DNA from: an uncultured candidate division Zixibacteria bacterium | GTDB taxonomy: Bacteria; Zixibacteria; MSB-5A5; GN15; FEB-12 | Direction: 5' to 3' | Length of the DNA stretch: 64,000 nt | NCBI GenBank assembly: GCA_963735035.1 | Contig: CAVTJJ010000002.1 | Location: 64,001-128,000, forward strand | In this document: piece after piece, positions 1 through 12,183 of the stretch | Position numbering within the stretch: position 1 is the stretch's first letter | Layout of the letters: each line of letters opens with the position of its first letter | Program-made: the position numbers and the translations under genes | Notes under the pieces: generated by a model | Database searches by the model: none | Seen by the model: only the letters and a program-made list of their open reading frames with translations | What the model was told of the DNA's origin: nothing

Positions 1-8
1 GACTCGCC

Positions 9-1082
9 GTGATGGCGTTCGGTTTGATTCGATCTCTCGTCGATGCCTGGTATGCTGGCGCTCGGGCCGCATCCCCCAACCGGCTGGTCACACGGAATGC
101 GGTCAGCGTGGTTTTTCCCCTGCCTCTGGCCTATCGGGATCAAATTCTCAAAGTGGACGGCATTGAAGACATCACTTATGGCAACTGGTTCGGCGGCATC
201 TACGTGGATCCCAAGAATTTCTTTCAGCAGATCGGCGTGGAACCGGAGTCATTTTTCAGAATCTGGCCGGATTTCGTAATTTCCCCCGATCAAAAGGAGG
301 CGTTTAGAAAGGATCGACGTGGCGCTGTCGTCGGCCAGGCTCTCGCGGATCGTTTTAGCTGGAAGGTCGGCGATCAAATAGCTCTAACCGGAACGATCTT
401 TCCCGGTGACTGGACGTTCGTTATCGACGGCATCTACCACGGCGCCAATCCCGATGTTGACGAGACCACCTTCATATTCAATTTCGCCTGTGTTGACGAA
501 CGAATGAGACAAGATTCGCCGGGGCGAGCTGGTCAGATCGGGTGGTACACACTCAAGATAAGCGATCCGACACGTGCCGCCGAAATCGGCTCTAAGGTAG
601 ACGCCCTCTTCGAAAACTCCTGGGCCGAAACCAAGACCGAGACAGAAAAAGAATTCACTTTGAACTTCATCGAAATGAGTAGTGCCATTATAGTCAGCCT
701 GCGCATAGTCTCTTACCTGATCGTCGGTGTTATATTTCTCGTCCTTGCCAACACGATGGCCATGACGGCGCGCGAGCGAGGCGCCGAGAACGCCTTCATG
801 CGCACGCTCGGATTCCGAGCTCATCACCTGGTCGGCCTGATCCTGGGCGAATCAACGCTGGTGGCAGTGTTCGGGGGACTGGTCGGGACAGGACTCCTTT
901 TGCTCGGCGGCAATTTGGTGGCGACAATGGTGAAGGACTACTTCCCGTCGTTCGCGGTCGCCCCCCCGACCTATATCGCCTGTCTTCTGATCGCGCTGGC
1001 CATCGGCGCGGCGGCGGCAATCTTCCCGGCCGTCCGAACCCTTCGGGTGAACATTGTCGACGGACTTCGAGTGGTCGACTAA
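9..1082 (+). CDS. MacB/FtsX-family ABC transporter permease (probably 5'-truncated by window edge)
   Basis: Periplasmic MacB-like region, then MAMTARERGAENAFMRTLGF motif and three C-terminal TM helices. Confidence 0.85.
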   Translation: MMAFGLIRSLVDAWYAGARAASPNRLVTRNAVSVVFPLPLAYRDQILKVDGIEDITYGNWFGGIYVDPKNFFQQIGVEPESFFRIWPDFVISPDQKEAFRKDRRGAVVGQALADRFSWKVGDQIALTGTIFPGDWTFVIDGIYHGANPDVDETTFIFNFACVDERMRQDSPGRAGQIGWYTLKISDPTRAAEIGSKVDALFENSWAETKTETEKEFTLNFIEMSSAIIVSLRIVSYLIVGVIFLVLANTMAMTARERGAENAFMRTLGFRAHHLVGLILGESTLVAVFGGLVGTGLLLLGGNLVATMVKDYFPSFAVAPPTYIACLLIALAIGAAAAIFPAVRTLRVNIVDGLRVVD

Positions 1083-1101
1083 GCGAAATCGAGGCTTGAA
1101 G

Positions 1102-2262
1102 ATGATTCCTCCGAACTATGCAGTACGAAATATCTCCAAACACAAAGTAACCTCGCTTCTCACGATGGCCGGGCTCAGTCTCGTGGTCTTTGTCTTTGCA
1201 GGGTCTCTGATGTTGTCAAACGGATTGAATGAAACCATGGTGGCAACGGGACAGCCTGACAACGTCTCGTTAATCCGCAAGTCGGCTCAGACGGAAGTCA
1301 TGTCGATCGTGTCGTACGAACAGGCTCAGATAGTCAAGGCGGATCAGGACGTAGCCCGCGACCAGGACGGCAATCCGCTCGTAGCCAGTGAAATATACGT
1401 CCTGATTAGTTTGCCCAAACGTGACACACAGGATGAAGCCAATATCGTTGTACGTGGCGTTGGCCCCACATCCTTCGCGCTTCGCCCGAATGTGAAGTTG
1501 GTCGAGGGTCGAATGTGGACAGATCCCGGCTCGGAAGTCATCGCCGGATTATCGGCTTCGAAACGCTACACCGGCTGTGCCGTGGGTGAAAAGCTGAGAT
1601 TCGGAGCCCGGAATTGGACCGTAGTGGGGATTTTCGAGGCCGGTGGCACAGGCTTTGAATCGGAAATCTGGTGCGATATCAATCAGGCCTCCGATGTCTT
1701 TCGGCGCCCGGTCTATTCATCGTTGTTGGCCCGCCTGACCGACACGACGCGGTTCGAGGCCTTCAAGGCCCGGGTAGAAGCCGACCCGCGCCTGACGCTC
1801 GACGTGAAGCGGGAGAAGGATTACTACGCGGCACAGACGCAGATGTTGGGCACCTTCATCAGTATCACTGGAACGGTCATCAGCATAGTCTTTTCTCTCG
1901 GTGCGATTGTCGGCGCCATGATCACCATGTACGCCGCTGTCGCGAACCGTACCCGGGAAATCGGAACCCTTCGGGCTCTTGGCTTTAACCGTTGGAGTAT
2001 CCTGACCGTCTTTCTCTTCGAATCGCTGTTGATAGCCCTGGCGAGTGGCCTGATTGGGATAGGCGCCGCTTACTTTCTGAATTTCCTGCAAATCTCGACG
2101 ACCAACTGGGGCACCTTCTCCGAAATTGCCTTCAACCTCCAACTTTCGACCGGAATCGTCCTGAAGACCCTGGCGTTTGCCCTGATAATGGGGCTGGTCG
2201 GAGGCTTCCTGCCATCGGTTCGTGCCTCACGGCTCCGCATTGTCGATTCTCTGCGGGGCTGA
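1102..2262 (+). CDS. MacB/FtsX-family ABC transporter permease
   Basis: MYAAVANRTREIGTLRALGF motif, 4 TM topology; ATG at 1102 after GAGG. Confidence 0.88.
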   Translation: MIPPNYAVRNISKHKVTSLLTMAGLSLVVFVFAGSLMLSNGLNETMVATGQPDNVSLIRKSAQTEVMSIVSYEQAQIVKADQDVARDQDGNPLVASEIYVLISLPKRDTQDEANIVVRGVGPTSFALRPNVKLVEGRMWTDPGSEVIAGLSASKRYTGCAVGEKLRFGARNWTVVGIFEAGGTGFESEIWCDINQASDVFRRPVYSSLLARLTDTTRFEAFKARVEADPRLTLDVKREKDYYAAQTQMLGTFISITGTVISIVFSLGAIVGAMITMYAAVANRTREIGTLRALGFNRWSILTVFLFESLLIALASGLIGIGAAYFLNFLQISTTNWGTFSEIAFNLQLSTGIVLKTLAFALIMGLVGGFLPSVRASRLRIVDSLRG

Positions 2263-2342
2263 TAGGTCTGTGCGCCGTTGACAGATAGCTGTCGTGCGAG
2301 TCGCACGTCCGGAGTGTGCGGCTCAATCAGGACGTTTTTGAT

Positions 2343-2393
2343 GTCTCATCCATGAGACTTTTCTTGACATTTTGGTCCAAATGGTTGTATAAT
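2343..2393 (+). promoter_or_regulatory. Consensus sigma70 promoter with upstream palindrome, driving the RiPP cluster
   Basis: TTGACA (2364-2369), 18 bp spacer, TATAAT (2388-2393); inverted repeat GTCTCAT-CC-ATGAGAC at 2343-2358. Confidence 0.7.
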
Positions 2394-2781
2394 CACCAAA
2401 GAGTTGCGGAATTTGCGGTGGTACGACTTCTCGCCTATACACCCCGCATAGATTTACTTAATTCGTTCTGACCGTTTACGGTATCCGTCATCGGGGGTCA
2501 GACAAATGCATCCAGCGGACTGCTTCGCCCAACTCAGAACAAGAAGTGGTTGCTGGATATGTCTGACTTTATCAGAACCTGGTCAAGAGTCTCCTTCACT
2601 GCCGGAACTAATTCCATTGACGGCTTCTGCCTCCAGCAATTACCACCCTTCTGCTTCCTAACAAACAAGACAGATTATCCCGAAGCGCGGGCTAAGACTT
2701 CGCTTCCGCATGATGCGGTGTGCGAGGTATTGGCGCCGCAAACCGCCCAGTGGGCCTCACACCCTTTCACGGAGGTTCGTG

Positions 2782-2886
2782 ATGATTTTCTTGATTGAGC
2801 CGAACTCAATCCGTCCCCCCTTCTGCCACAAGTGCTCCTTGTTCTGCAGCAAGGAAATTGGACTGTACGGCATTGACCCGACCTAA
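2782..2886 (+). CDS. RiPP precursor peptide 1, MIFLIEPNSIRPPFCHKCSLFCSKEIGLYGIDPT (34 aa)
   Basis: Translated by hand; GGAGG RBS at 2771; paralogous to precursors 2 and 3; below ORF-track cutoff. Confidence 0.9.
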   Translation: MIFLIEPNSIRPPFCHKCSLFCSKEIGLYGIDPT

Positions 2887-2934
2887 TCCGGGTAGATCGC
2901 GAATTCAACTTAATTAGAAGAGTTCGCATGACTT

Positions 2935-2963
2935 GTGAGGGAGCGGTCCTGCCGTTCCCTCAC
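2935..2963 (+). terminator. Stem-loop after precursor 1 (no U-tract; terminator or mRNA-stabilising hairpin)
   Basis: GTGAGGGAGCGG-TCCTG-CCGTTCCCTCAC, 12 bp with one G-U pair. Confidence 0.55.
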
Positions 2964-3092
2964 CCTGATAACTATGAGTAAGTTGCATTGATACTGTACC
3001 ATCTGGGATGGGTCACGACTGAAGAGCAATTTCAGACGTGAGCTTCCCAGCTAATCGGCCACATGGCCCGCACCCTCACATGGAGGTCCGTG

Positions 3093-3188
3093 ATGATCTT
3101 TTTGATTGAGCCGAATTCGGTTAACCCGCCGAACTGCACAACCAAGTGCAGTCCGAAGAGATACCCGTTGTATGGTATCGATGTTTGA
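3093..3188 (+). CDS. RiPP precursor peptide 2, MIFLIEPNSVNPPNCTTKCSPKRYPLYGIDV (31 aa)
   Basis: Translated by hand; GGAGG RBS at 3082; conserved leader and LYGI motif. Confidence 0.9.
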   Translation: MIFLIEPNSVNPPNCTTKCSPKRYPLYGIDV

Positions 3189-3205
3189 TGAGTGCTTTTG
3201 AGTAC

Positions 3206-3232
3206 GCGGGGAACGGCCCAGCCGTTCCCCGC
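3206..3232 (+). terminator. Stem-loop after precursor 2
   Basis: GCGGGGAACGGC-CCA-GCCGTTCCCCGC, perfect 12 bp. Confidence 0.55.
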
Positions 3233-3366
3233 CTCTAGAATCCGAAGACATTTGATTTAGGTAGAAGCAACTCCGGAACGAGTCACGATTGAGCCAATGG
3301 TTTCAAGATTGGCTTGGCCCGGCTAACCGGCCCAAAAGGCCTGAACCAACCATAGGAGGTTTTTCA

Positions 3367-3468
3367 ATGATCTTCTTAATCGAACCGAACACGGTCAATC
3401 CGCCTTGCGTCGTTAAAGTTTGTGCGAGAATTGTACCGCTCTACGGCATCAAGCCGATCGAGATCTGA
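3367..3468 (+). CDS. RiPP precursor peptide 3, MIFLIEPNTVNPPCVVKVCARIVPLYGIKPIEI (33 aa)
   Basis: Translated by hand; AGGAGG RBS at 3354; conserved leader and LYGI motif. Confidence 0.9.
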   Translation: MIFLIEPNTVNPPCVVKVCARIVPLYGIKPIEI

Positions 3469-3509
3469 TCTCGGTAGCTGATTTCTACCGATCTCGGTAG
3501 ATAAGCTGT

Positions 3510-3542
3510 CGTTAGGGAGAACGATCTTCGTTCTCCCTAACG
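3510..3542 (+). terminator. Stem-loop between precursor 3 and the maturase genes
   Basis: CGTTAGGGAGAACGA-TCT-TCGTTCTCCCTAACG, perfect 15 bp. Confidence 0.6.
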
Positions 3543-3569
3543 CTGAATACAACATTTAGTGCGACCAGT

Positions 3570-4925
3570 ATGCTGACTTTATCTTCATATAATTACTTCG
3601 CCCCCTGGCACGACGGTTATTTCCTTGCGTACAATGCCCGTTCGGGAGCAGTTGCACTGCTCAACGAAGAGAATCAACGAACCTTTCAGGTACTGCTTCA
3701 AAAGATTAGCGACCATCAGACGGAACAACTTAACCCTGAAGAGCAGGAGTTGTTGAAACAACTGCAGTATGGCAAGTTCGTTCACACGGTCGAACCGCCT
3801 GAAATCGACGTATTGAAGTTCGAAAGCCAGCGCGCCAGGTACGACATGACCTCGCTGGGGCTTGTCATCGCCCCCACCATGGCCTGCAACATGGCCTGCA
3901 CGTATTGTTATGAAAGTTCGCGCGGCGGTCGCATGACAGCGGCGACGATGGACTCGGTGGCGCAACTGATAGAAAAGCAAGCCAGGAGCCTGAAGGATTT
4001 GGCCCTGACATGGTATGGCGGCGAACCCCTCCTGGCCATGAACATCATAGAAGATTTGACTTCAAGGATCCTCCGTCTGACGGAACAATACGAAATCAAG
4101 TACACCTCGGCCATTATTACCAACGGCTATCTCCTGGATAAAGAGACCGTCGATCGTTTGCGACAGCTCCACGTGACTGCCGCCCAGGTCACTCTTGACG
4201 GCCCGGCTGCAATTCACAATCGCAAACGGCCCCTTGTGAATGGCCGACCTTCATTTGACACTATCGTTGAGAACTTGAAGTATGCGACCACGAAACTCGG
4301 GATAGGCATCCGAGTCAACGTCGACAAGGAATTCTCACTGGACACAATCGGTCAATTGCTTGATGAACTGGACGGCGCAGGGCTTCGTGATCGTCTGGGC
4401 GTACATTTCGCCCTGATGGAGCCCGCCACGACCGTGTGCTCCAATATCAGTGAAAATTGCTATGATACGGCCGGATTTTCAGCCGTCGAGACCGAATTCT
4501 ATACCCTGCTCCTGGAGCGGGGCTTCCGAATAGAGAAACTCCCGTCACCCATGATGGTGGCCTGCATGGCGCAACTGGTTAATGCCTATGTGGTGGACCC
4601 CGACGGTGACCTGTACCGGTGCTGGAATTACATCGGCGACAAGTCGCACGCCTGCGGCAACATCGCCCAGGAACTTAACCCCGTGCACCCCGAGTTCATG
4701 CGCCTGTTCTCCTTTGATCCCTTTGAAGATAACAAGTGCCGCGAATGTAACGTTTTGCCTCTTTGCCAGGGCGCGTGTCCGTCGCGACGCTTTGACCGTA
4801 ATGTCACAGCCGATCAGCAGTGTGAAAGCTGGCGGTACAACTTGGAGCCGATGCTCGACCTGATCGCCCGGTCGCGCTGGCGGCAAATGCAAAACGCCAA
4901 CCAGGAAGCGAAGAAACCAGTATGA
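3570..4925 (+). CDS. Radical SAM/SPASM peptide maturase with N-terminal RRE-like domain (Clo7bot/Cys-rich-peptide maturase type)
   Basis: ~90 aa N-terminal extension (SSYNYF...LAYNARSGAVA...LLKQLQYGKFV), CNMACTYC, WYGGEPLL, SPASM cysteines (CMA...GDLYRC...CRECNVLPLCQGACP...C). Confidence 0.9.
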   Translation: MLTLSSYNYFAPWHDGYFLAYNARSGAVALLNEENQRTFQVLLQKISDHQTEQLNPEEQELLKQLQYGKFVHTVEPPEIDVLKFESQRARYDMTSLGLVIAPTMACNMACTYCYESSRGGRMTAATMDSVAQLIEKQARSLKDLALTWYGGEPLLAMNIIEDLTSRILRLTEQYEIKYTSAIITNGYLLDKETVDRLRQLHVTAAQVTLDGPAAIHNRKRPLVNGRPSFDTIVENLKYATTKLGIGIRVNVDKEFSLDTIGQLLDELDGAGLRDRLGVHFALMEPATTVCSNISENCYDTAGFSAVETEFYTLLLERGFRIEKLPSPMMVACMAQLVNAYVVDPDGDLYRCWNYIGDKSHACGNIAQELNPVHPEFMRLFSFDPFEDNKCRECNVLPLCQGACPSRRFDRNVTADQQCESWRYNLEPMLDLIARSRWRQMQNANQEAKKPV

Positions 4926-6064
4926 GCGATTTCAAATTCTTTCCGCACTACGTAGTCTGGGAGACTACTTTTGCCTGCAACATGCGTTGTGTTCACTGCG
5001 GCACGTCCGCGGGCAAGCAACGCCCGGATGAACTTACCACCAAAGAGTCACTCGCCCTGATCGATGAACTGGCTGATCTGGGCACGGCGCACCTGGTTCT
5101 TTCCGGTGGCGAGCCGCTGCTTCGCAAAGACTGGCGCGAGTTGACCAGGAGATCCAAACAGCGTGGCATCGGCACCTACATGATCACCAATGCCTTCGCC
5201 ATTACCCCCCAGATTGTCGACGACATGCTGGCCGCCGGGATGGACAAGATCGGCATCAGTTTTGACGGCACCGAGAAGACTCATAACTATATCCGCCAGC
5301 GCGATGACAGCTATGCCAAAGTCATCAACGCGTTCAAGTGGTGCAACGAACGTAAACTGAGATTCCAGGCGGTGTCGCAGATCTCCAATATCAACATCGG
5401 CGAAATGGATCAGATGCGCCAGATTCTGATCGACAACGGCGCCGTCGATTGGCGCATCCAGATGACCACGACCACCGGTCGCATGCGCGGCCTGAGCGAC
5501 ATGGTCCTGTCTATTCCCAACTACACAAAGTTGATCGATAAGTGCATCGAATTCCGCAATCTCGACGGCGTGAAGATCGATCCGGGCGAAAACATCGGCT
5601 ACTTCGGCTGTAAGGGTACCGAACTTATCGACGGCGGCATTTATCTCGGCTGCTACGCCGGCACCAGAGTCGCCGGAGTGGAGTCCAACGGCAACATCAA
5701 GGGATGCTTGTCGATGCAGGAAGACTTTGTCGAAGGCAACATCCGCGATTCCTCGTTCACGGAGATTTGGAATCGGCCCGACGCTTTCGCCTACAATCGC
5801 CAGTTCACCCGCGAGACGGCCGGTGGACCGTGCCGTAAGTGCCATTATCTTCCGTTGTGCCGGGGCGGCTGCACCACGACTTCGTTTGCACAAACAGGTG
5901 AACGAGCCAACAACCCGTACTGCATTCATCGCATTGAGCTCGAAAAAGGTATACAGGCGCCGCCGGATGAACCATATATTGCGGAAATACTGGCGCGGTT
6001 CGAACCACCTGAGGCCGTAGTGACCGATGCTACGCCGCGCTCGACGCCTGATATACCGTCATAG
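4922..6064 (+). CDS. Radical SAM/SPASM enzyme, PlpX-like splicease candidate
   Basis: YVVWETTFACNMRCVHCG, WRIQMTTTTGR, PGENIGYFG, GCYAG...GVESNGNIKGCLSM, LCRGGCT...NNPYCIHR; no N-terminal RRE; 4-nt overlap with upstream gene. Confidence 0.8.
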   Translation: MSDFKFFPHYVVWETTFACNMRCVHCGTSAGKQRPDELTTKESLALIDELADLGTAHLVLSGGEPLLRKDWRELTRRSKQRGIGTYMITNAFAITPQIVDDMLAAGMDKIGISFDGTEKTHNYIRQRDDSYAKVINAFKWCNERKLRFQAVSQISNINIGEMDQMRQILIDNGAVDWRIQMTTTTGRMRGLSDMVLSIPNYTKLIDKCIEFRNLDGVKIDPGENIGYFGCKGTELIDGGIYLGCYAGTRVAGVESNGNIKGCLSMQEDFVEGNIRDSSFTEIWNRPDAFAYNRQFTRETAGGPCRKCHYLPLCRGGCTTTSFAQTGERANNPYCIHRIELEKGIQAPPDEPYIAEILARFEPPEAVVTDATPRSTPDIPS

Positions 6065-6145
6065 CAGACAGACTATAATGCCACTTCGGAACTGTCACGA
6101 CGTCAGACTTCTTTGCACACCCGGTTCCGGGTCAGGTGTATCGGA

Positions 6146-7903
6146 ATGACCAGTCTGATCGCCAAGTTCGGACGATTGTGGGGTTACATTCGTCCGTATC
6201 GTTATCACCAGGCGCTGATGCTCCTGGTGATGGCTATCCTGGCCGTCCTGGTCATAGCCTTGCCGGCGGCGATCCAGTACATGATCGACACCCTGATCCC
6301 GGGGTTGATCGCATCGAGTTCCAACGGGTTCAATTTCCGGCCGCTCGTTCTCTTCTGCCTCTTCCTGGTATCGGTATATCTTGCAGACATATTCTTCGCC
6401 TGGGTGAGGGACTACCTCTCAGGCTACATCGGCGCCCGCATCATTCGCGACCTTCGCTCCCAGCTCTTCGCGCATCTCGAACGCCTGTCGCTGAAGTTCT
6501 TCCAGGAACACCGGGTGGGAGAAGTGATGTCGCGGCTGCTTTCTGATGTCGGCCGTGTGCAGGACTTGTTGTCTTCCACGCTCATGGCCTTGATCACCCA
6601 GGCCCTCATGCTGGCCGCGATCCTCGCATACCTTCTGTCGATCAACTGGATGCTCACTCTGGTCGCTGTGATACCGGTTCCGCTTTCGATCATCTTGACT
6701 AATGCGTACGGCATCCGCTTGAATTTCCTCGCCCGGCTCATTCAGGAGACCCAGGCCGCTCTCTCGGGCCGTCTTCAGGAATCCCTGATGTCGGTCAAGA
6801 CCATCAAGGCGTTCGGCCAGGAAGACCGGGAAAAGAAGAAGTTGGACGACGTCCTCGAGACGCTCACCCACGTGCTGGTCAAGAACAGTTGGATGAATTC
6901 GCTGGCCGTCAACGTGGTCAATTTCTTCAACCAGATCGGCCCGATCGTGGTCCTGGCATGGGGCGTTTATCTGGTAGTGGCGGGCGAGATGAAGATGGGC
7001 CAGTTGATGGGTTTCTACATCCTACTGACTTTCCTTTATTCCCCTATCCAGGGTTTGGCTCAGTCGTTCCTGCAAATCCAGACCGCGATGGCCTCGGTCG
7101 ATCGCGTGTTCGAATACCTGGACATTCCCCCAGCAGTGGTCGAAGACCCAAACCCCGTCACATTGTCGCAATTCAAAGGTGACATTGAGCTCTGTCAGGT
7201 CCGGTTCGTCTACGAAGATTCCCATTTTAGCGTCGATGACTTCTCCTTGTCGATTCATGCCGGTGAAAAAGTTGCGTTCGTGGGGCCTTCAGGCGCAGGC
7301 AAGACCACCATTGCCAACCTGATCCTCAGGTTCTATGACCCCGACCGCGGGCAGATAACTCTGGATGGTGTTGATCTTCGAAGGCTCCCAATCAAATTCC
7401 TTCGCGACCAGATCGCCCTCGTAGATCAGGACCCGCTGTTGTTCAAGGGAAGCATTCGAGAAAACATCGCCTACGGCCGACCTGAGGCGACTCAGGACGA
7501 AGTCGAAGCGGCCGCCCGGGTGGCAAACATCCATGAATTCATCATGTCACTTCCGCGGGGGTACGAGGCTGAAATTGGCGAGCGCGGCGTGACCGTATCG
7601 GGCGGCGAGAAACAGCGCCTCTGCCTGGCACGGGCGATTTTGACTGATCCGAAGATTCTCATTCTGGACGAAGCCACGTCGGCGCTCGACTCGATGTCGG
7701 AACGATTGATTCAGGATTCACTTGCGAAGATTCTAAAGGGCAAGACGGCGATCATTATCGCTCATCGCCTCGCGACGGTCCAGAATGCCGACCGGATCGT
7801 GGCGCTTGAGTCCGGCCGCATAGTAGATCAGGGCACGCACGACGAGCTGACCGCCCGCTGCCCGCTCTATCGTGACCTCGCCGCGAAACAGTTGTTGGTT
7901 TAA
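6146..7903 (+). CDS. ABC exporter (fused TMD+NBD, MsbA/Sav1866 type, no C39 peptidase domain)
   Basis: 6 TM region, Walker A GPSGAGKT, signature VSGGEKQR, Walker B ILILDEATS. Confidence 0.92.
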   Translation: MTSLIAKFGRLWGYIRPYRYHQALMLLVMAILAVLVIALPAAIQYMIDTLIPGLIASSSNGFNFRPLVLFCLFLVSVYLADIFFAWVRDYLSGYIGARIIRDLRSQLFAHLERLSLKFFQEHRVGEVMSRLLSDVGRVQDLLSSTLMALITQALMLAAILAYLLSINWMLTLVAVIPVPLSIILTNAYGIRLNFLARLIQETQAALSGRLQESLMSVKTIKAFGQEDREKKKLDDVLETLTHVLVKNSWMNSLAVNVVNFFNQIGPIVVLAWGVYLVVAGEMKMGQLMGFYILLTFLYSPIQGLAQSFLQIQTAMASVDRVFEYLDIPPAVVEDPNPVTLSQFKGDIELCQVRFVYEDSHFSVDDFSLSIHAGEKVAFVGPSGAGKTTIANLILRFYDPDRGQITLDGVDLRRLPIKFLRDQIALVDQDPLLFKGSIRENIAYGRPEATQDEVEAAARVANIHEFIMSLPRGYEAEIGERGVTVSGGEKQRLCLARAILTDPKILILDEATSALDSMSERLIQDSLAKILKGKTAIIIAHRLATVQNADRIVALESGRIVDQGTHDELTARCPLYRDLAAKQLLV

Positions 7904-8130
7904 TCGATAGATGCCATGCGGACACCGTGCCCGGCAGATGTCCACATCTGCCGCGTTAGAAGATTCATCCGGTACCCCACAGCTTGCTACGGATTGTCTT
8001 AAATTGATCGGCAGGGTTCCACCCCTGCCGTATGACTGGTTGGCCCAGCTGCTTGCAGGTGGGTTGAAGACCGGGTGGTCCATCAGTGTGACCAGATCAT
8101 GGGCACCGCACTATTCCTCCATCTACTAAT

Positions 8131-8652
8131 CTACGGACTCACGCTGGGCAATTTCTCGAACGTGTATCTTCTGCCGCTATCAGGATCATCCACGTAGAAG
8201 AACAGCCGAAGTGGACCAAAATTGAGATCCATCAACCCATACGACATGTAAATGTTGACTACGCACCGGTCCACATGGTCGTTCAACTGCTCAAAATCAA
8301 GTTCAACAGAAGACCGTTCACTGGCCTTCGTGATCAGAGACCATGTTCCAAAACCTGAGATTGATCGCGCGCTATCAAGAGTAAGTGGTAGAAGGATCGA
8401 GGGGAGATGCTCCGCTCTGAATTTTCCATCTCCCCTAATCTCGATTAGTGGCTCCTCCGTCAAGAACAAAGTATCGCCGAATGGCAGAACGACGAAATTG
8501 GACGTCTCTTTTGAGGGCATCCACATACCAATGATCTGACTCTTGTCAGGGGAGCCGCATCCTATCACCACGATTCCTGAAATCGCTATTGCGGAAAAAT
8601 GGGCGCGATACGATTGAATATCCATATGTTCTTTCCTTACCGACACTCGCAC
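8131..8652 (-). CDS. Hypothetical lipoprotein-like protein
   Basis: Hydrophobic stretch ending VVIGC; no recognised domain. Confidence 0.55.
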   Translation of the reverse strand: MRVSVRKEHMDIQSYRAHFSAIAISGIVVIGCGSPDKSQIIGMWMPSKETSNFVVLPFGDTLFLTEEPLIEIRGDGKFRAEHLPSILLPLTLDSARSISGFGTWSLITKASERSSVELDFEQLNDHVDRCVVNIYMSYGLMDLNFGPLRLFFYVDDPDSGRRYTFEKLPSVSP

Positions 8653-9000
8653 GGGTTGAACTTTACAGTTTCACTCCAGTTGAGCACTTGTCGCTTCTCC
8701 AACATGGGTCCAGATGAAAACAGTGCCGGGTGACCCACCTGCTTGCAGGTCGGTTATAAATCCCCTCGAACCCCGCCGATGCCCCCCACCCGACAAGCGG
8801 GTGGGCCACCAGCCAAGTACGGCCCTGTGTCCCGTGACATAGTCTGATTGCATGTCGCAGTATAATTCATACTGCCCGCTCCTGTCAATCACTGCCGGGG
8901 AACAACCGCCCAGGCCACTATCTGAGAATTATTGCGCACTGTCGGACGATGTCATAAATTAGCCGCCAAGAATCGCGAACTACTGAGACACGGAGAACCG

Positions 9001-9531
9001 ATGGCTGAAGAATCAAAAACCCCCTGGCTGAATTACCTCGCCCTTACCACCGTTGTCCTGGCCGTGTGCGCCACCCTCTCGACCTTCCGGGGAAGCAGCT
9101 ACTCTACCAAGTCGGTTCTCGCCCAGTCACAGGCATCGAACCAATGGTCGTATTACCAGTCCAAGAGCATCAAAGGGTATCTCTACGAAATCGGACTGGA
9201 AAAGCTTGAACTGGAACAAAAGGAAAAGGCGCCCTCCCTGTCTCCGGAGTTGGCCGCTGACTACCAGAAAATGATCGAAGAGTATCGGTCCACCATAGCC
9301 CGATACGACGGGGAAAAGAAGACCATCGACAGTACCGCCCGATCCCAGGAAGAACGCCGCGATTGGGCACAGGGTCACTCGCAGACCTTTGGCGTGGCGG
9401 TGATCTTCCTGCAAATAGCGATCCTGCTCTCATCGATCGCCGCCCTTACAAAGAAGAAGCCGCTCTGGTATCTCGGAATGGCTGTCGGCTCGGTCGGTAT
9501 GGTTTACTTCATTATGGGTGTGTTCTTCTGA
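9001..9531 (+). CDS. DUF4337-like membrane protein
   Basis: ASNQWSYYQSKSIK motif, coiled coil, 3 TM; ATG at 9001 after GGAG. Confidence 0.8.
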   Translation: MAEESKTPWLNYLALTTVVLAVCATLSTFRGSSYSTKSVLAQSQASNQWSYYQSKSIKGYLYEIGLEKLELEQKEKAPSLSPELAADYQKMIEEYRSTIARYDGEKKTIDSTARSQEERRDWAQGHSQTFGVAVIFLQIAILLSSIAALTKKKPLWYLGMAVGSVGMVYFIMGVFF

Positions 9532-9888
9532 TCAAGTGAAGCTTCACAAATTGCTTTACTTTGGCAAGTCCCGATAACCCGCCAATGGCGCGGCTGTGCG
9601 GCCCTTGACCGTCCCCTATTGCCGTACAATCTTCGCAAAGTAATTACGCCACTCAACCCCAGATCGTTGGGGGGACGCCGTCTGAATTATTGCGCGCTCC
9701 CCCCCGCACGGGAACCGCAGACGCCCGGAAATTGTTCAACCAGTCTGTGGATCAGCTAAGATCGACAAGTTGGGTCCAATATTAGGACTACTTCAAGGCG
9801 CATAGAAATTTCAAGCTATTTCAACTTTATATATAACGGAAGCATAACAACTAATCAGTACCTGCTCAAAGTCAAAGGAGATGAACTT

Positions 9889-10437
9889 ATGGTCAGGAGA
9901 ATCACACTAGTAATGGCCTTAGTTGCCATGACCGTCGCGGTGGTCGTTGCCGGCGATATGCAGAAGGCCACAACCGGGACACCGTCGATGGAGGCAATGA
10001 AGGCCGGATTGATGAAGTGCTACGTGTGTAAGAACATCGCGGCACACATGGACGAGTATGGCCCCATGGGCATGGAGGCCGTCAAGCTCAACGACGGACT
10101 TGCTATTCGTCACTGGGTCAGAAGCGGTGACCCGAAGAGCGTGGCGGCGTTACATACCGCTTGCATGGCCGCTGGCAAAGCCGGCGAGGAGGCCATGAAT
10201 TTCACGGATGAACAGGCCAAGACGCAGTTGTGCGAGCAGTGCCAGGCGATTCGGGCTGCGGCCAAAGCCGGCGCCCGTGTGAGCAATGGTGCGACGTCCG
10301 ACGGCGATATTATGGTGCTGACCTCCCCAGACCCCGGTGTTCAGATGCAATTGTCGTCGCTGGAGCAAAAGTGCGCCATGATGGCAGTTATGATGGACAT
10401 GCCGGCCAAGGGAAAGCCGACGGCCCAGAAGAACTAG
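9889..10437 (+). CDS. Secreted hypothetical protein with two CxxC motifs
   Basis: GGAG RBS, signal peptide, CYVC and CEQC. Confidence 0.75.
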   Translation: MVRRITLVMALVAMTVAVVVAGDMQKATTGTPSMEAMKAGLMKCYVCKNIAAHMDEYGPMGMEAVKLNDGLAIRHWVRSGDPKSVAALHTACMAAGKAGEEAMNFTDEQAKTQLCEQCQAIRAAAKAGARVSNGATSDGDIMVLTSPDPGVQMQLSSLEQKCAMMAVMMDMPAKGKPTAQKN

Positions 10438-10459
10438 TATGCGAGAATCAGCGGCTTAG

Positions 10460-10492
10460 AGAAGCCCCCTTGACCAGGGGGCTTCTTTCTTT
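10460..10492 (+). terminator. Rho-independent terminator between convergent genes
   Basis: AGAAGCCCCCT-TGACC-AGGGGGCTTCT followed by TTCTTT. Confidence 0.75.
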
Positions 10493-10508
10493 GCCAATTA
10501 TTCGTAGA

Positions 10509-11744
10509 TTAGAAATCGACGCCCAGCCGGGTCAGAAACGTGTCGCTGTGGTCGGAACCTGTCCGGTTGGCTCCGACCGGTGTGCGATAGGTGGTACGAT
10601 TAAGCTCCATCGCCACATACGCAACCGTTCCGGCCTTCTCCACAACCGTGTAGCGACCACCCAGCGAATATCGACCCCTGGTGACTCGTGCGGAGAAGTA
10701 CGACGCCATCCCGTCGTCCTGAAAACTCTCAAACCGAAACGCGGTCGTAAACGGATGCGACCGGGCAAACAACCTTCGAGCCCGGTACAAACCCCGTCGC
10801 GTGAATTGGCTGGGTCGATAGACGAACGAATACGCGGCCGTTAAACTTAGCACACTCTCTCGGAATTCGCGATCGGCGTCCACATACCGCTCCCGACGCA
10901 AGGCCTTGATGTACTCGGCATCGAAAGAGATGCTCTTTGCCATTGGAACAACGATGTTGGTTGCTAATTGAACCACCACGTTGCGTCGAACATGCCCCGG
11001 CTCGCTGAGAACCGCCGCCATCAGGGTTACGGACGAATCCACCGACGAAAATATTCCCGAAGCCACCCATGAGCTGATCTGAGCGGCCGTATCCGGCGCT
11101 CGCATGATTTCGGCGGTATCGAACAGCCGGGATTGGAACAGGTGGTCGCTCGACTCGGCGCCCTTGTAGACCGTCAGCGATGCGTCCAAAGTCGGACCGG
11201 CTTGAATACCGGCCGTCAACCCCACTTTGTTGACCTCATAAGCGTCCTTGGCCATCGGGTCGCTTATCAGTTGATTCTCAAAGACGCCAAAAGGCTGACT
11301 CCTTTTGCCAAATACGGCATAAGGTCCTGAGGCAAAGCCCTGAACATCGATGTGCGCTTCGTCGATAGCTACCCGCTGATCGCCTTCATTGACAAAGTCA
11401 TCCAGCCATTCCGAATTTAGCACGACGGTCGATGAAACATTCTCGGCCAGAGGCGATTCAAGAGCAATTTCGATAATACGCACGTAGAGGTCGGATGTGG
11501 CTCGCTTTCCCGAAGGCCGAATGGGAGTACCGTTGTTCCACCTCAGTTCCCCCTGAAACGTTCCGGACAATTTCAATCTGTCTGTCGGCGACGTGTTCTT
11601 AGTAGTCGTAGAGTCAGATGCGGTGGCTCCAGCCACAGGACTTGCCTTTGCCGTGTAAGCACGTGCCCCAATTAGAAACGTACACGTCGCAACTGCGACC
11701 AGTGTAGTGGACCTAAACAACAACATCTTCTCTCTCCCATCCAA
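10509..11744 (-). CDS. Outer-membrane porin, LbtU-like
   Basis: Signal peptide, IDEAHI...FGKRSQPFGVFENQLISDP motif, C-terminal beta-signal ending in F. Confidence 0.7.
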   Translation of the reverse strand: MDGREKMLLFRSTTLVAVATCTFLIGARAYTAKASPVAGATASDSTTTKNTSPTDRLKLSGTFQGELRWNNGTPIRPSGKRATSDLYVRIIEIALESPLAENVSSTVVLNSEWLDDFVNEGDQRVAIDEAHIDVQGFASGPYAVFGKRSQPFGVFENQLISDPMAKDAYEVNKVGLTAGIQAGPTLDASLTVYKGAESSDHLFQSRLFDTAEIMRAPDTAAQISSWVASGIFSSVDSSVTLMAAVLSEPGHVRRNVVVQLATNIVVPMAKSISFDAEYIKALRRERYVDADREFRESVLSLTAAYSFVYRPSQFTRRGLYRARRLFARSHPFTTAFRFESFQDDGMASYFSARVTRGRYSLGGRYTVVEKAGTVAYVAMELNRTTYRTPVGANRTGSDHSDTFLTRLGVDF

Positions 11745-12183
11745 AGCGGCTGCAATGTAATGTGCAGGATACTATCCACGCAATGCTCAAACCGCCTGGC
11801 TACTCGCGATTGCAGCCCTACCTACGGGCTATCTGAAAATGCGAGATCAAGAGCCGGTAGAACAACCGTTCTTGATGAACATCGTATCCGACTTGTCGCG
11901 ATACCAGGTTCGATAATCGTTGTCGTGCATCCACGACTGGATATCCGCAAGATACGGATTGTGATAGCGCTTGCCGTGCGTTTCGAGATAGATAACTACG
12001 GACGCTCGAAAAGTCGCTCGTTCATCATATTGATGCAAATGAAGTCAATCAGATTGTCACTCTAATTTCTTGACCGACAACATATTGACTTGTGCTTGGG
12101 GACTGGCGTGATGTCCGGGTTCTTCCTAAGTCCTATAAAGTTACAGAAAGACAAACACTGATAAGACAGCCCCAAATAGGGTC

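Follow-up and report, generated by a model that had tools for sequence, protein, structure and literature searches.

The genome of an uncultured candidate division Zixibacteria bacterium contains, within a 64,000-nucleotide stretch of contig CAVTJJ010000002.1 (the window, by which we mean the whole stretch that was analysed), three very short open reading frames (ORFs), pepA, pepB and pepC, followed by genes for two radical S-adenosylmethionine (SAM)/SPASM enzymes, rSAM1 and rSAM2, and for an ATP-binding cassette (ABC) exporter. We conclude that the three ORFs are probably paralogous precursors of a family of ribosomally produced peptides with post-translational modifications (RiPPs) that lacks a family model. 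The conserved motifs of the peptides and the kinship of the two enzymes suggest that these precursors would probably receive thioether crosslinks and a ketoamide. A broader reading, which we consider possible though doubtful, is that the family constitutes a phylum-wide, fast-diversifying library of minimal RiPPs in which a tag of about 10 residues suffices for two radical SAM enzymes making thioether-stapled α-ketoamide protease-inhibitor warheads.

Three short putative precursor genes and their family

The original prediction of a precursor triplet, made from the sequence of this region, proved correct in its outline, and pepA, pepB and pepC all lie where it had placed them. A GGAGG ribosome-binding site stands 5, 5 and 7 nt ahead of the respective ATGs, and the three products have in common an MIFLIEPN start and the residues LYGI near the end. 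The synonymous codons that were said to encode the shared residues (ATT/ATC, TTC/TTT, TTG/TTA, GAG/GAA, AAC/AAT, CTG/TTG/CTC, TAC/TAT and GGC/GGT) were all found, and the different cysteine spacings of the three peptides were verified (Table 1). Over the 14 codons that specify the same residue in all three genes, 13 of 42 nucleotide sites are variable and every change is synonymous; the synonymous share of the possible single-base changes in these codons is about 21-22%. Because the codons entering this count were picked post hoc for their identical residues, the case for the reality of the genes was rested on independent homologues. Ungapped comparison of the 60-nt stretches ahead of the three ATGs gives identities of only 27-48%, and in a genome of the same genus the ends of the pepA ORF align while the noncoding DNA upstream of it does not.

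A profile built from the three window copies detected homologues in 6 of 60 relatives, five of which keep the order peptide(s)-rSAM1-rSAM2-ABC, the sixth being situated at a contig end. With a 15-member profile, 153 proteins were retrieved at E<=1e-3 from a collection of 5.8 billion; all are unnamed or called 'hypothetical protein', and the only organism names among them are those of Zixibacteria metagenome-assembled genomes. A 115-row profile retrieved 225 representatives of 50% identity clusters among 1.84 billion proteins, and the 150 representatives listed are all 29-71 aa long, 141 of them matching from residue 1. Longer forms of the window ORFs, starting at 2710, 3063 and 3289, were rejected because of these 141 matches, which place the beginning of the homologues at the methionine of MIYLIDP. 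In all, 227 distinct homologous peptides were collected, and their family-wide conservation bears out the selection on the peptide that had been read from the codons. No family in Pfam or NCBIfam matches the three window peptides at E up to 0.01, nor does any NCBIfam family match them or two paralogue peptides at E up to 10, a level at which HMMER filters may drop weak matches.

The family is spread widely through the phylum. Among 285 genomes taken as Zixibacteria by their record titles, a peptide match (E<=1e-4) was found in 85, including 68 of the 198 high-quality genomes, and the matches come from 40 of the 130 genera and 9 of the 20 families; a single genome holds as many as 10 copies. 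A scan of species-representative genomes with rSAM2 as the query gave 174 confirmed relatives, 80 of which were kept. The record titles of these relatives are mostly Candidatus Zixiibacteriota, some being Ignavibacteria(les), GN15, Calditrichaeota, Eisenbacteria, Thermodesulfobacteriota, Nitrospirota and Terriglobales. Family peptides lie upstream of rSAM2 on the same strand in 65 of the 80 loci, and homologues of the window peptides do adjoin orthologous rSAM pairs, the reverse of what the original prediction had named as its refutation. Seven of the 15 peptide-less loci belong to an outgroup (about 41% identity) whose gene context differs, six are on contigs cut off upstream, one has a masked stretch upstream, and one (L080) is unexplained. 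L080 is a second rSAM1-rSAM2 pair in one Zixibacteria chromosome, where a B12-type enzyme is also encoded; a 253-aa gene stands directly upstream in place of the peptide, and the family hidden Markov model finds no peptide on either strand within 6 kb on each side of rSAM2.

That the pep ORFs are untranslated chance frames in repeated regulatory DNA is hardly credible. Their very small size would fit such an origin, as would the absence of two of the three from the protein collection: exact look-up of both short and long forms did not find pepA or pepB, and the exact sequence of pepC is present (P0045), so that the earlier description of the triplet as unannotated holds for two genes and fails for the third. 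Against chance frames stand the exclusively synonymous variation of the shared codons, the ribosome-binding sites at the right distance, the 227 distinct homologues conserved as protein when the flanking DNA is not, and the linkage of the peptides to the enzymes in 65 of 80 loci. Gene callers missed two of the three pep genes and the family is without a Pfam or NCBIfam model, so that genome mining has probably under-counted similar cassettes.

Family peptides are 20-48 aa long (median 37, n=227). Their consensus opens with M-I-[Y/F]-L-I-[D/E]-P (MIYLIDP when one residue is given per position). Between this start and the hypervariable core, which contains 2-5 cysteines, lie 5-9 variable residues, and the core is followed by P-[L/M]-Y-G-[I/V]-[P/D] and a short tail. 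After the initial methionine, position 2 is I or V in 196 of 227 peptides, position 3 Y or F in all, position 4 L in 220 of 227, position 5 I or V in all, position 6 D, E or N in all, and position 7 P in 227 of 227. The first cysteine falls at position 14-16 in 202 of 224 peptides, and 225 of 227 contain 2-5 cysteines. YG occurs in 224 of 227, preceded by P at -2 in 218 of these 224 and at -1 by L (177), M (33) or C (13), and followed by I (133) or V (86) and then by P (119) or D (69). Tail lengths of 3 and 6 residues, counted from YG, are the most frequent.

The spacing CxxxC accounts for 349 of the 468 intervals between successive cysteines, with threonine at the second position in 137 of the 349 units; this threonine is the first candidate for a thioether acceptor. 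The family therefore varies mainly in sequence and in cysteine number, not in spacing, and the proposal that it represents a natural library of ring sizes on one warhead was not borne out. If the rings are thioethers to non-cysteine acceptors, the cysteine spacing does not set ring size in any case. Two variant members were seen in one genome with 10 profile matches over several contigs, both on the opposite strand: one (L023 8770-8901, -) is without YG and ends in ...CPPVLCPPNLCPLF, and in the other (L023 11085-11201, -) YG is followed by a cysteine-rich tail, ...ILYGVPWCPPVCPLFF.

Small peptides with an invariant tyrosine, encoded beside SPASM enzymes related to MftC and PqqE, might also give rise to a redox cofactor or metal-binding factor used inside the cell, comparable to mycofactocin or pyrroloquinoline quinone (PQQ), and not to a secreted product; metal binding by the CxxxC repeats is conceivable. 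As a rule, a cofactor precursor has a conserved sequence and is encoded by a single gene copy. Here 217 distinct cores were found among 224 peptides, the genes occur in 1-10 copies per genome with a patchy distribution (85 of 285 genomes), and an ABC exporter is linked to them, all of which makes a cofactor role very improbable.

rSAM1 and the modelled docking of a short leader

The best NCBIfam match of rSAM1 is TIGR04334, the Clo7bot maturase (343.9 bits, cutoff 600), in an alignment that is nearly full length (rSAM1 residues 5-431 against model positions 3-431 of 440). The second best is TIGR04463 (301.1 bits, cutoff 525), followed by FlmE/OhkG, CefB, the geopeptide maturase and PapB (132.9 bits, cutoff 340); the SCIFF maturase model gives 93.5 bits (cutoff 425), and rSAM1 scores under every NCBIfam family cutoff. 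The likeness to Clo7bot systems that the original prediction had drawn from the starts of the peptides, by comparison with an MKYIxxP type of start, is thus found, below the cutoff, in the enzyme and is missing from the peptides. CrpC, a member of TIGR04463, installs ranthionine crosslinks, and CrpA-type substrates are large cysteine-rich proteins (PMC13692751).

An AlphaFold2 (AF2) model of rSAM1 (predicted local distance difference test score, pLDDT, 89.5) contains, before the radical SAM core, an N-terminal domain of four strands (residues 2-4, 8-12, 18-22 and 27-31) followed by three helices. The top structural matches in a Foldseek search were 5why and 5wgg, two entries of the SCIFF thioether synthase CteB (E 1e-20, TM 0.63-0.69, about 465 columns), with anSME, TigE, SuiB and ChlB next. 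As modelled, rSAM1 has a CteB-type fold with an N-terminal peptide-recognition domain.

The original prediction had named modelling of a complex between the leader and a recognition domain as a check, and the outcome supports binding. In three runs with rSAM1 (50-row alignment) and pepA (115-row alignment), accompanied by three controls, the complex score had a median of 0.76 (0.67, 0.76, 0.81), against 0.01 for the best control; among solved complexes 116 of 157 attain this mark, among mismatched pairs 2 of 215. At least 53% of contacts are common to the runs, and the pLDDT of pepA is at least 45. On the peptide side the confident interface comprises residues 1-10 and 12, and on the enzyme side residues 20, 22, 25-32, 35, 61, 64-65 and 67-69 together with 324, 326-328 and 432-440, residues of the C-terminal helix among them. 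A comparison of 50 orthologues shows little or no variation at many of these rSAM1 positions. The model indicates that the pair resembles a leader placed on its recognition domain, not that this particular copy binds. The very short recognition sequence that had been proposed is in keeping with the modelled interface, with the conservation of residues 1-7 and with the position of the first cysteine at 14-16.

In several respects the system resembles those of ranthipeptides and sactipeptides (SCIFF/CteB, PapB, CrpC): rSAM1 is predicted to have the CteB fold and a recognition domain, the core is rich in cysteine, the model lays the leader as a strand on that domain, and the CrpC family is its second-best match. 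It differs from them in its leader of about 10 residues, its conserved C-terminal YG module and its second enzyme, and from CrpC-type systems in particular by the score of rSAM1 (301.1 bits against 525) and by substrates of 31-34 aa in place of large proteins. With the Clo7bot system it shares the full-length TIGR04334 match and short, cysteine-rich peptides whose hydrophobic start ends in proline, whereas the score of rSAM1 (343.9 bits against 600) and the absence of any NCBIfam match for the peptides set it apart.

rSAM2 and the conserved YG module

The best NCBIfam match of rSAM2 is TIGR04103 ('nif11-class peptide radical SAM maturase 3', 229.1 bits, cutoff 725), which we take to be the family of PlpX, and the next is TIGR03913 ('GDL motif peptide-associated', 228.8 bits, cutoff 591.75). 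Lower scores were obtained with TIGR04133 (185), NirJ2 (185), AhbD (176) and MftC (148), and cyclophane-forming families are not among the best 25 NCBIfam matches. A search of the ESM Atlas with rSAM2 returned generic radical SAM/SPASM clusters only. An enzyme encoded on a Nostoc plasmid, which carries the TIGR04103 annotation and has 34.6% identity to rSAM2 (E 1e-58), lies between a Nif11 precursor ending in ...GGRGSIALYGLPPELF (ALYGLPPELF) and a 71-aa ORF, a gene order that matches the A-X-Y layout of type I spliceotides (PMC11414181). Relatives of rSAM2 in Azospirillum and Aureibacter (35-37% identity) adjoin DUF1843 peptides that begin ...IRMLYGG, ...IKPYGV and ...IIQPYGAG; MLYGG, KPYGV and QPYGAG are the sites found in the GDL-motif and DUF1843 peptides of this second nearest family. 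In Agathobacter rectalis, an unannotated small ORF (L108 2683-2898) that ends in ...NLFGPVMYGTGVRM (GPVMYGTGVRM) stands directly upstream of genes for a radical SAM protein with 34% identity to rSAM2 and a major facilitator superfamily (MFS) transporter, and has the look of a splicease-type precursor left without annotation in this gut Firmicute.

A maximum likelihood tree of 22 rows, including eight Zixibacteria rSAM2 sequences, places the latter in a supported clade (98/97) with the Nostoc TIGR04103 enzyme and with the enzymes that adjoin xYG peptides. The Zixibacteria sequences form a separate subclade within it, and the clade excludes MftC, a TIGR04053 enzyme, both rSAM1s and the second enzyme of another cassette in the same genome, described below. 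That cassette offers a natural contrast: its second SPASM enzyme is MftC/NirJ2-like (TIGR04103 90.7 bits), and both of its peptides are without YG. The nearest outgroup of rSAM2, at about 41% identity (L098, L101 and L104; 6001-7056), with record titles UBP9, Burkholderiales, Syntrophorhabdaceae and Chloroflexota, is situated between an MFS-like gene and a gene for 441-447 aa, beyond which comes a glyoxalase-like gene. As its surroundings yielded no small peptide, it was dropped as a guide to the function of rSAM2.

The CxxxCxxC motif of rSAM2 begins at residue 19, leaving no room for an N-terminal recognition domain, and the AF2 model (pLDDT 91.2) agrees with the absence of one. A confidently modelled C-terminal helix, residues 351-358 (window 5972-5995) with the consensus ..LLxRF, is conserved in most rSAM2 orthologues and missing in a divergent subclade (L092, L094, L095). 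This helix is a candidate built-in activator.

The conserved module near the peptide C-terminus is closely similar to a known splice site. PlpXY splice tags derived from PlpA2 read GPIRPLYGLPI (PMC10533398, Table 1), and the commonest C-terminal module of the present family, [G/H]IKPLYGIPI, differs from RPLYGLPI only in K for R and I for L. The xYG splice site is present in all three window peptides and in 224 of 227 family peptides. In RasA, splicing takes place at LYG and the two cysteines form a disulfide (PMC11626197). Motif and homology together indirectly support the suggestion, made in the original prediction, that the peptides may carry a warhead (ketoamide).

These features can be arranged into a putative pathway. 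The pep ORFs are very probably translated, and the hairpins that follow them (Table 1) would stabilise or partly terminate the precursor message. To judge from the complex model, the first 10 or so residues quite probably lie as a strand against the recognition domain of rSAM1 and are the whole 'leader'. On balance, rSAM1 would then join the sulfurs of core cysteines to carbons of other residues, yielding thioether rings, a chemistry suggested by its kinship with CteB, the Clo7bot maturases, CrpC and PapB. rSAM2, whose nearest families adjoin peptides with an xYG site, is proposed to remove a tyramine unit at the invariant L-Y-G. The ABC transporter would export the product, which may inhibit proteases, and the short N-terminus would either stay on or be removed by a general protease. 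In the minimal-RiPP reading, the recognition domain of rSAM1 or helix 351-358 of rSAM2 would replace the Y protein or helical leader of known systems.

Several observations weigh against this pathway. rSAM2 is far under the curated cutoffs (229 bits against 725 and 592), the branching inside its clade is not resolved, and two members of the clade, the outgroup (about 41% identity) and the long-branched TIGR04133 enzyme, were not seen to have an xYG peptide beside them. Each characterised splicease described in PMC11414181 depends either on a Y protein or on a helical leader; here the interval from the rSAM2 stop (6064) to the ABC start (6113) contains no ORF, and only about 14 residues precede the first cysteine. 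The cysteines may pair as disulfides instead, which is what those of the RasA and RcsA spliceotides do, and the conserved cassette is without a protease. The complex model may owe its score to memory of the solved CteB-leader complex, and the fold of the peptide itself is uncertain in it (pLDDT 46-51).

Some of these points, namely scores under every curated cutoff, an unresolved clade that includes enzymes without xYG peptides, and the lack of both Y protein and helical leader, speak for an alternative in which the pep ORFs encode RiPP precursors and rSAM2 is no splicease. P-L-Y-G-I would then be a second recognition site, a structural turn or the site of another tyrosine chemistry, such as a three-residue cyclophane-type crosslink at Y-G-I, a decarboxylation or the formation of a second thioether. 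MftC, an enzyme acting on a tyrosine at the C-terminus, also scores 148 bits with rSAM2. We regard this alternative as unlikely, given that eight positions of the motif, among them P at -2 and +3, correspond to the published splice tag, that both of the best rSAM2 families adjoin xYG peptides, and that cyclophane-forming families fall outside its best 25 matches.

Compared with spliceotides, both the type I PlpA/PlpX/PlpY system of cyanobacteria and the binary RhaA/RhaX, RasA/RasX and RcsA/RcsX systems, the system proposed here has in common the affinity of rSAM2 to nif11-class maturase 3, an xYG with L or M before the tyrosine and P at -2 and +3, near the PlpA2-derived tag, and cysteines near the splice site, as in RasA and RcsA. 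Unlike them, the present family has no Nif11/NHLP-type or helical leader and no Y protein, its precursors are only 20-48 aa long, and it is linked to a second, thioether-type radical SAM enzyme with a recognition domain of its own, while rSAM2 forms its own subclade below the TIGR04103 family cutoff.

The cassette, its neighbours and its significance

The features of the cassette are collected in Table 1. The start of rSAM2 overlaps the stop of rSAM1 by 4 nt. Of 72 related loci, 71 have an rSAM1 homologue upstream of rSAM2 and 54 have an ABC homologue downstream of it. Pfam detects only ABC_membrane and ABC_tran in the exporter, which thus has no peptidase domain. Two MacB/FtsX permease genes upstream (9-2262) and four genes downstream of the ABC gene were excluded from the cassette, since none is present in any of the 72 related loci.

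Table 1. Features of the pep-rSAM cassette, in window coordinates
Feature	Position	Strand	Description
Promoter-like site	2364-2393	+	TTGACA-18-TATAAT, sigma-70-like; 12/12 consensus positions; about 390 nt upstream of pepA
pepA ribosome-binding site	2772-2776	+	GGAGG
pepA	2782-2886	+	34-aa putative precursor, MIFLIEPNSIRPPFCHKCSLFCSKEIGLYGIDPT; MIFLIEPN...CxxCxxxC...LYGIDPT; family-profile match 75.5 bits
Hairpin 3' of pepA	2935-2963	+	13 bp, no U tract; -24 kcal/mol, z -5.5, 0/200 shuffles fold as well
pepB	3093-3188	+	31-aa putative precursor, MIFLIEPNSVNPPNCTTKCSPKRYPLYGIDV; CxxxC; PLYGIDV; family-profile match 80.4 bits
Hairpin 3' of pepB	3206-3232	+	12 bp; -27.6 kcal/mol, z -5.6
pepC	3367-3468	+	33-aa putative precursor, MIFLIEPNTVNPPCVVKVCARIVPLYGIKPIEI; CxxxxC; PLYGIKPIEI; family-profile match 72.9 bits
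Hairpin 3' of pepC	3510-3542	+	15 bp; -25.2 kcal/mol, z -7.1
rSAM1	3570-4925	+	451-aa radical SAM/SPASM maturase; predicted N-terminal peptide-recognition domain, residues about 1-90
rSAM2	4922-6064	+	380-aa radical SAM/SPASM enzyme, splicease-like candidate; without N-terminal recognition domain
ABC exporter	6113-7903	+	596 aa, fused permease and ATPase; Pfam ABC_membrane 38-311, ABC_tran 375-523

The three hairpins that follow the pep genes have perfect stems of 12-15 bp, a 3-nt loop and no U tract. The promoter-like site is a consensus match only, and the same-genus genome shows no conservation of the span from this site to pepA. Small hairpins, at 2767-2782 (TCACGGAGGTTCGTGA) and 3079-3092 (CATGGAGGTCCGTG), enclose the pepA and pepB ribosome-binding sites; they end at or overlap the ATG, were flagged by a terminator scan and may control translation. 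No Rfam family was found in window 1-12000. A look-up of sequencing runs listed three DNA runs with small shares (0.07) and none of RNA.

In about 30 of the 54 loci with an ABC match, a gap of about 1.4 kb separates rSAM2 from the ABC gene. In one related Zixibacteria locus (L029 7101-8549) the gap holds a gene for a 482-aa B12-binding radical SAM protein with weak matches to RiPP C-methyltransferase and P-methyltransferase families. The window cassette has no such gene.

A second cassette was found in the same genome (contig C4, about 559.3-562.4 kb; peptides at L002 811-906 and 1304-1396, enzymes in L004 101-2472). It resembles the window cassette in having two tandem short Cys/Tyr peptides, an rSAM1-type enzyme and then a second SPASM enzyme. 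Its peptides, VKLIQLPG...PLYIICGHY and MKLIQLPG...IWYIICSIH, are 30-31 aa long with 1 or 2 cysteines and a conserved tyrosine, and its rSAM1 paralogue is 35% identical to rSAM1 (Clo7bot 308 bits, TIGR04463 306 bits). The roughly 230 nt upstream of each peptide (L002 about 585-810 and 1085-1303) are better conserved than the peptide ORFs, the two units being 80% identical overall with the ORFs included, and contain both a promoter-like box (TTGACA) and a long 5' leader in which extended blocks are identical. Rfam gives no match in L002 1-1600; a regulatory RNA is one possible identity of the element, a duplicated promoter unit another.

Spliceotides are already known, as are thioether RiPPs made by SPASM enzymes that bear a RiPP recognition element. 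Our literature searches, whose scope lay outside the lists of Scott et al. 2022, did not find a description of the combination proposed here, namely an N-terminus of 7-10 residues as the sole leader, an obligate pairing of the two enzymes, a hypervariable CxxxC core and a phylum-wide spread. The family motif strings MIYLIDP, IKPLYG, MIFLIEP, PLYGIP, PLYGVP and MIYLVDP gave no literature match, and articles on Zixibacteria and RiPPs, judged by title and the start of the abstract, included nothing relevant. Scott et al. 2022 (Chem 8:2659) reportedly list 939 predicted splicease systems, and these enzymes may already be among them.

Should the minimal-RiPP reading be true, the family would be a natural counterpart of engineered leader-independent spliceases. 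If the proposed chemistry is correct, the cassette would provide a compact two-enzyme route to constrained ketoamide peptides, with about 2.5 kb of enzyme genes and precursors of about 100 nt, for which nature would already have sampled more than 200 cores, and its recognition tag would be short enough for peptide libraries and protein tagging. It would further show a splicease working without the Y protein or helical leader of the described systems, and would give a first natural-product function to a gene set that is widespread in an uncultured phylum.

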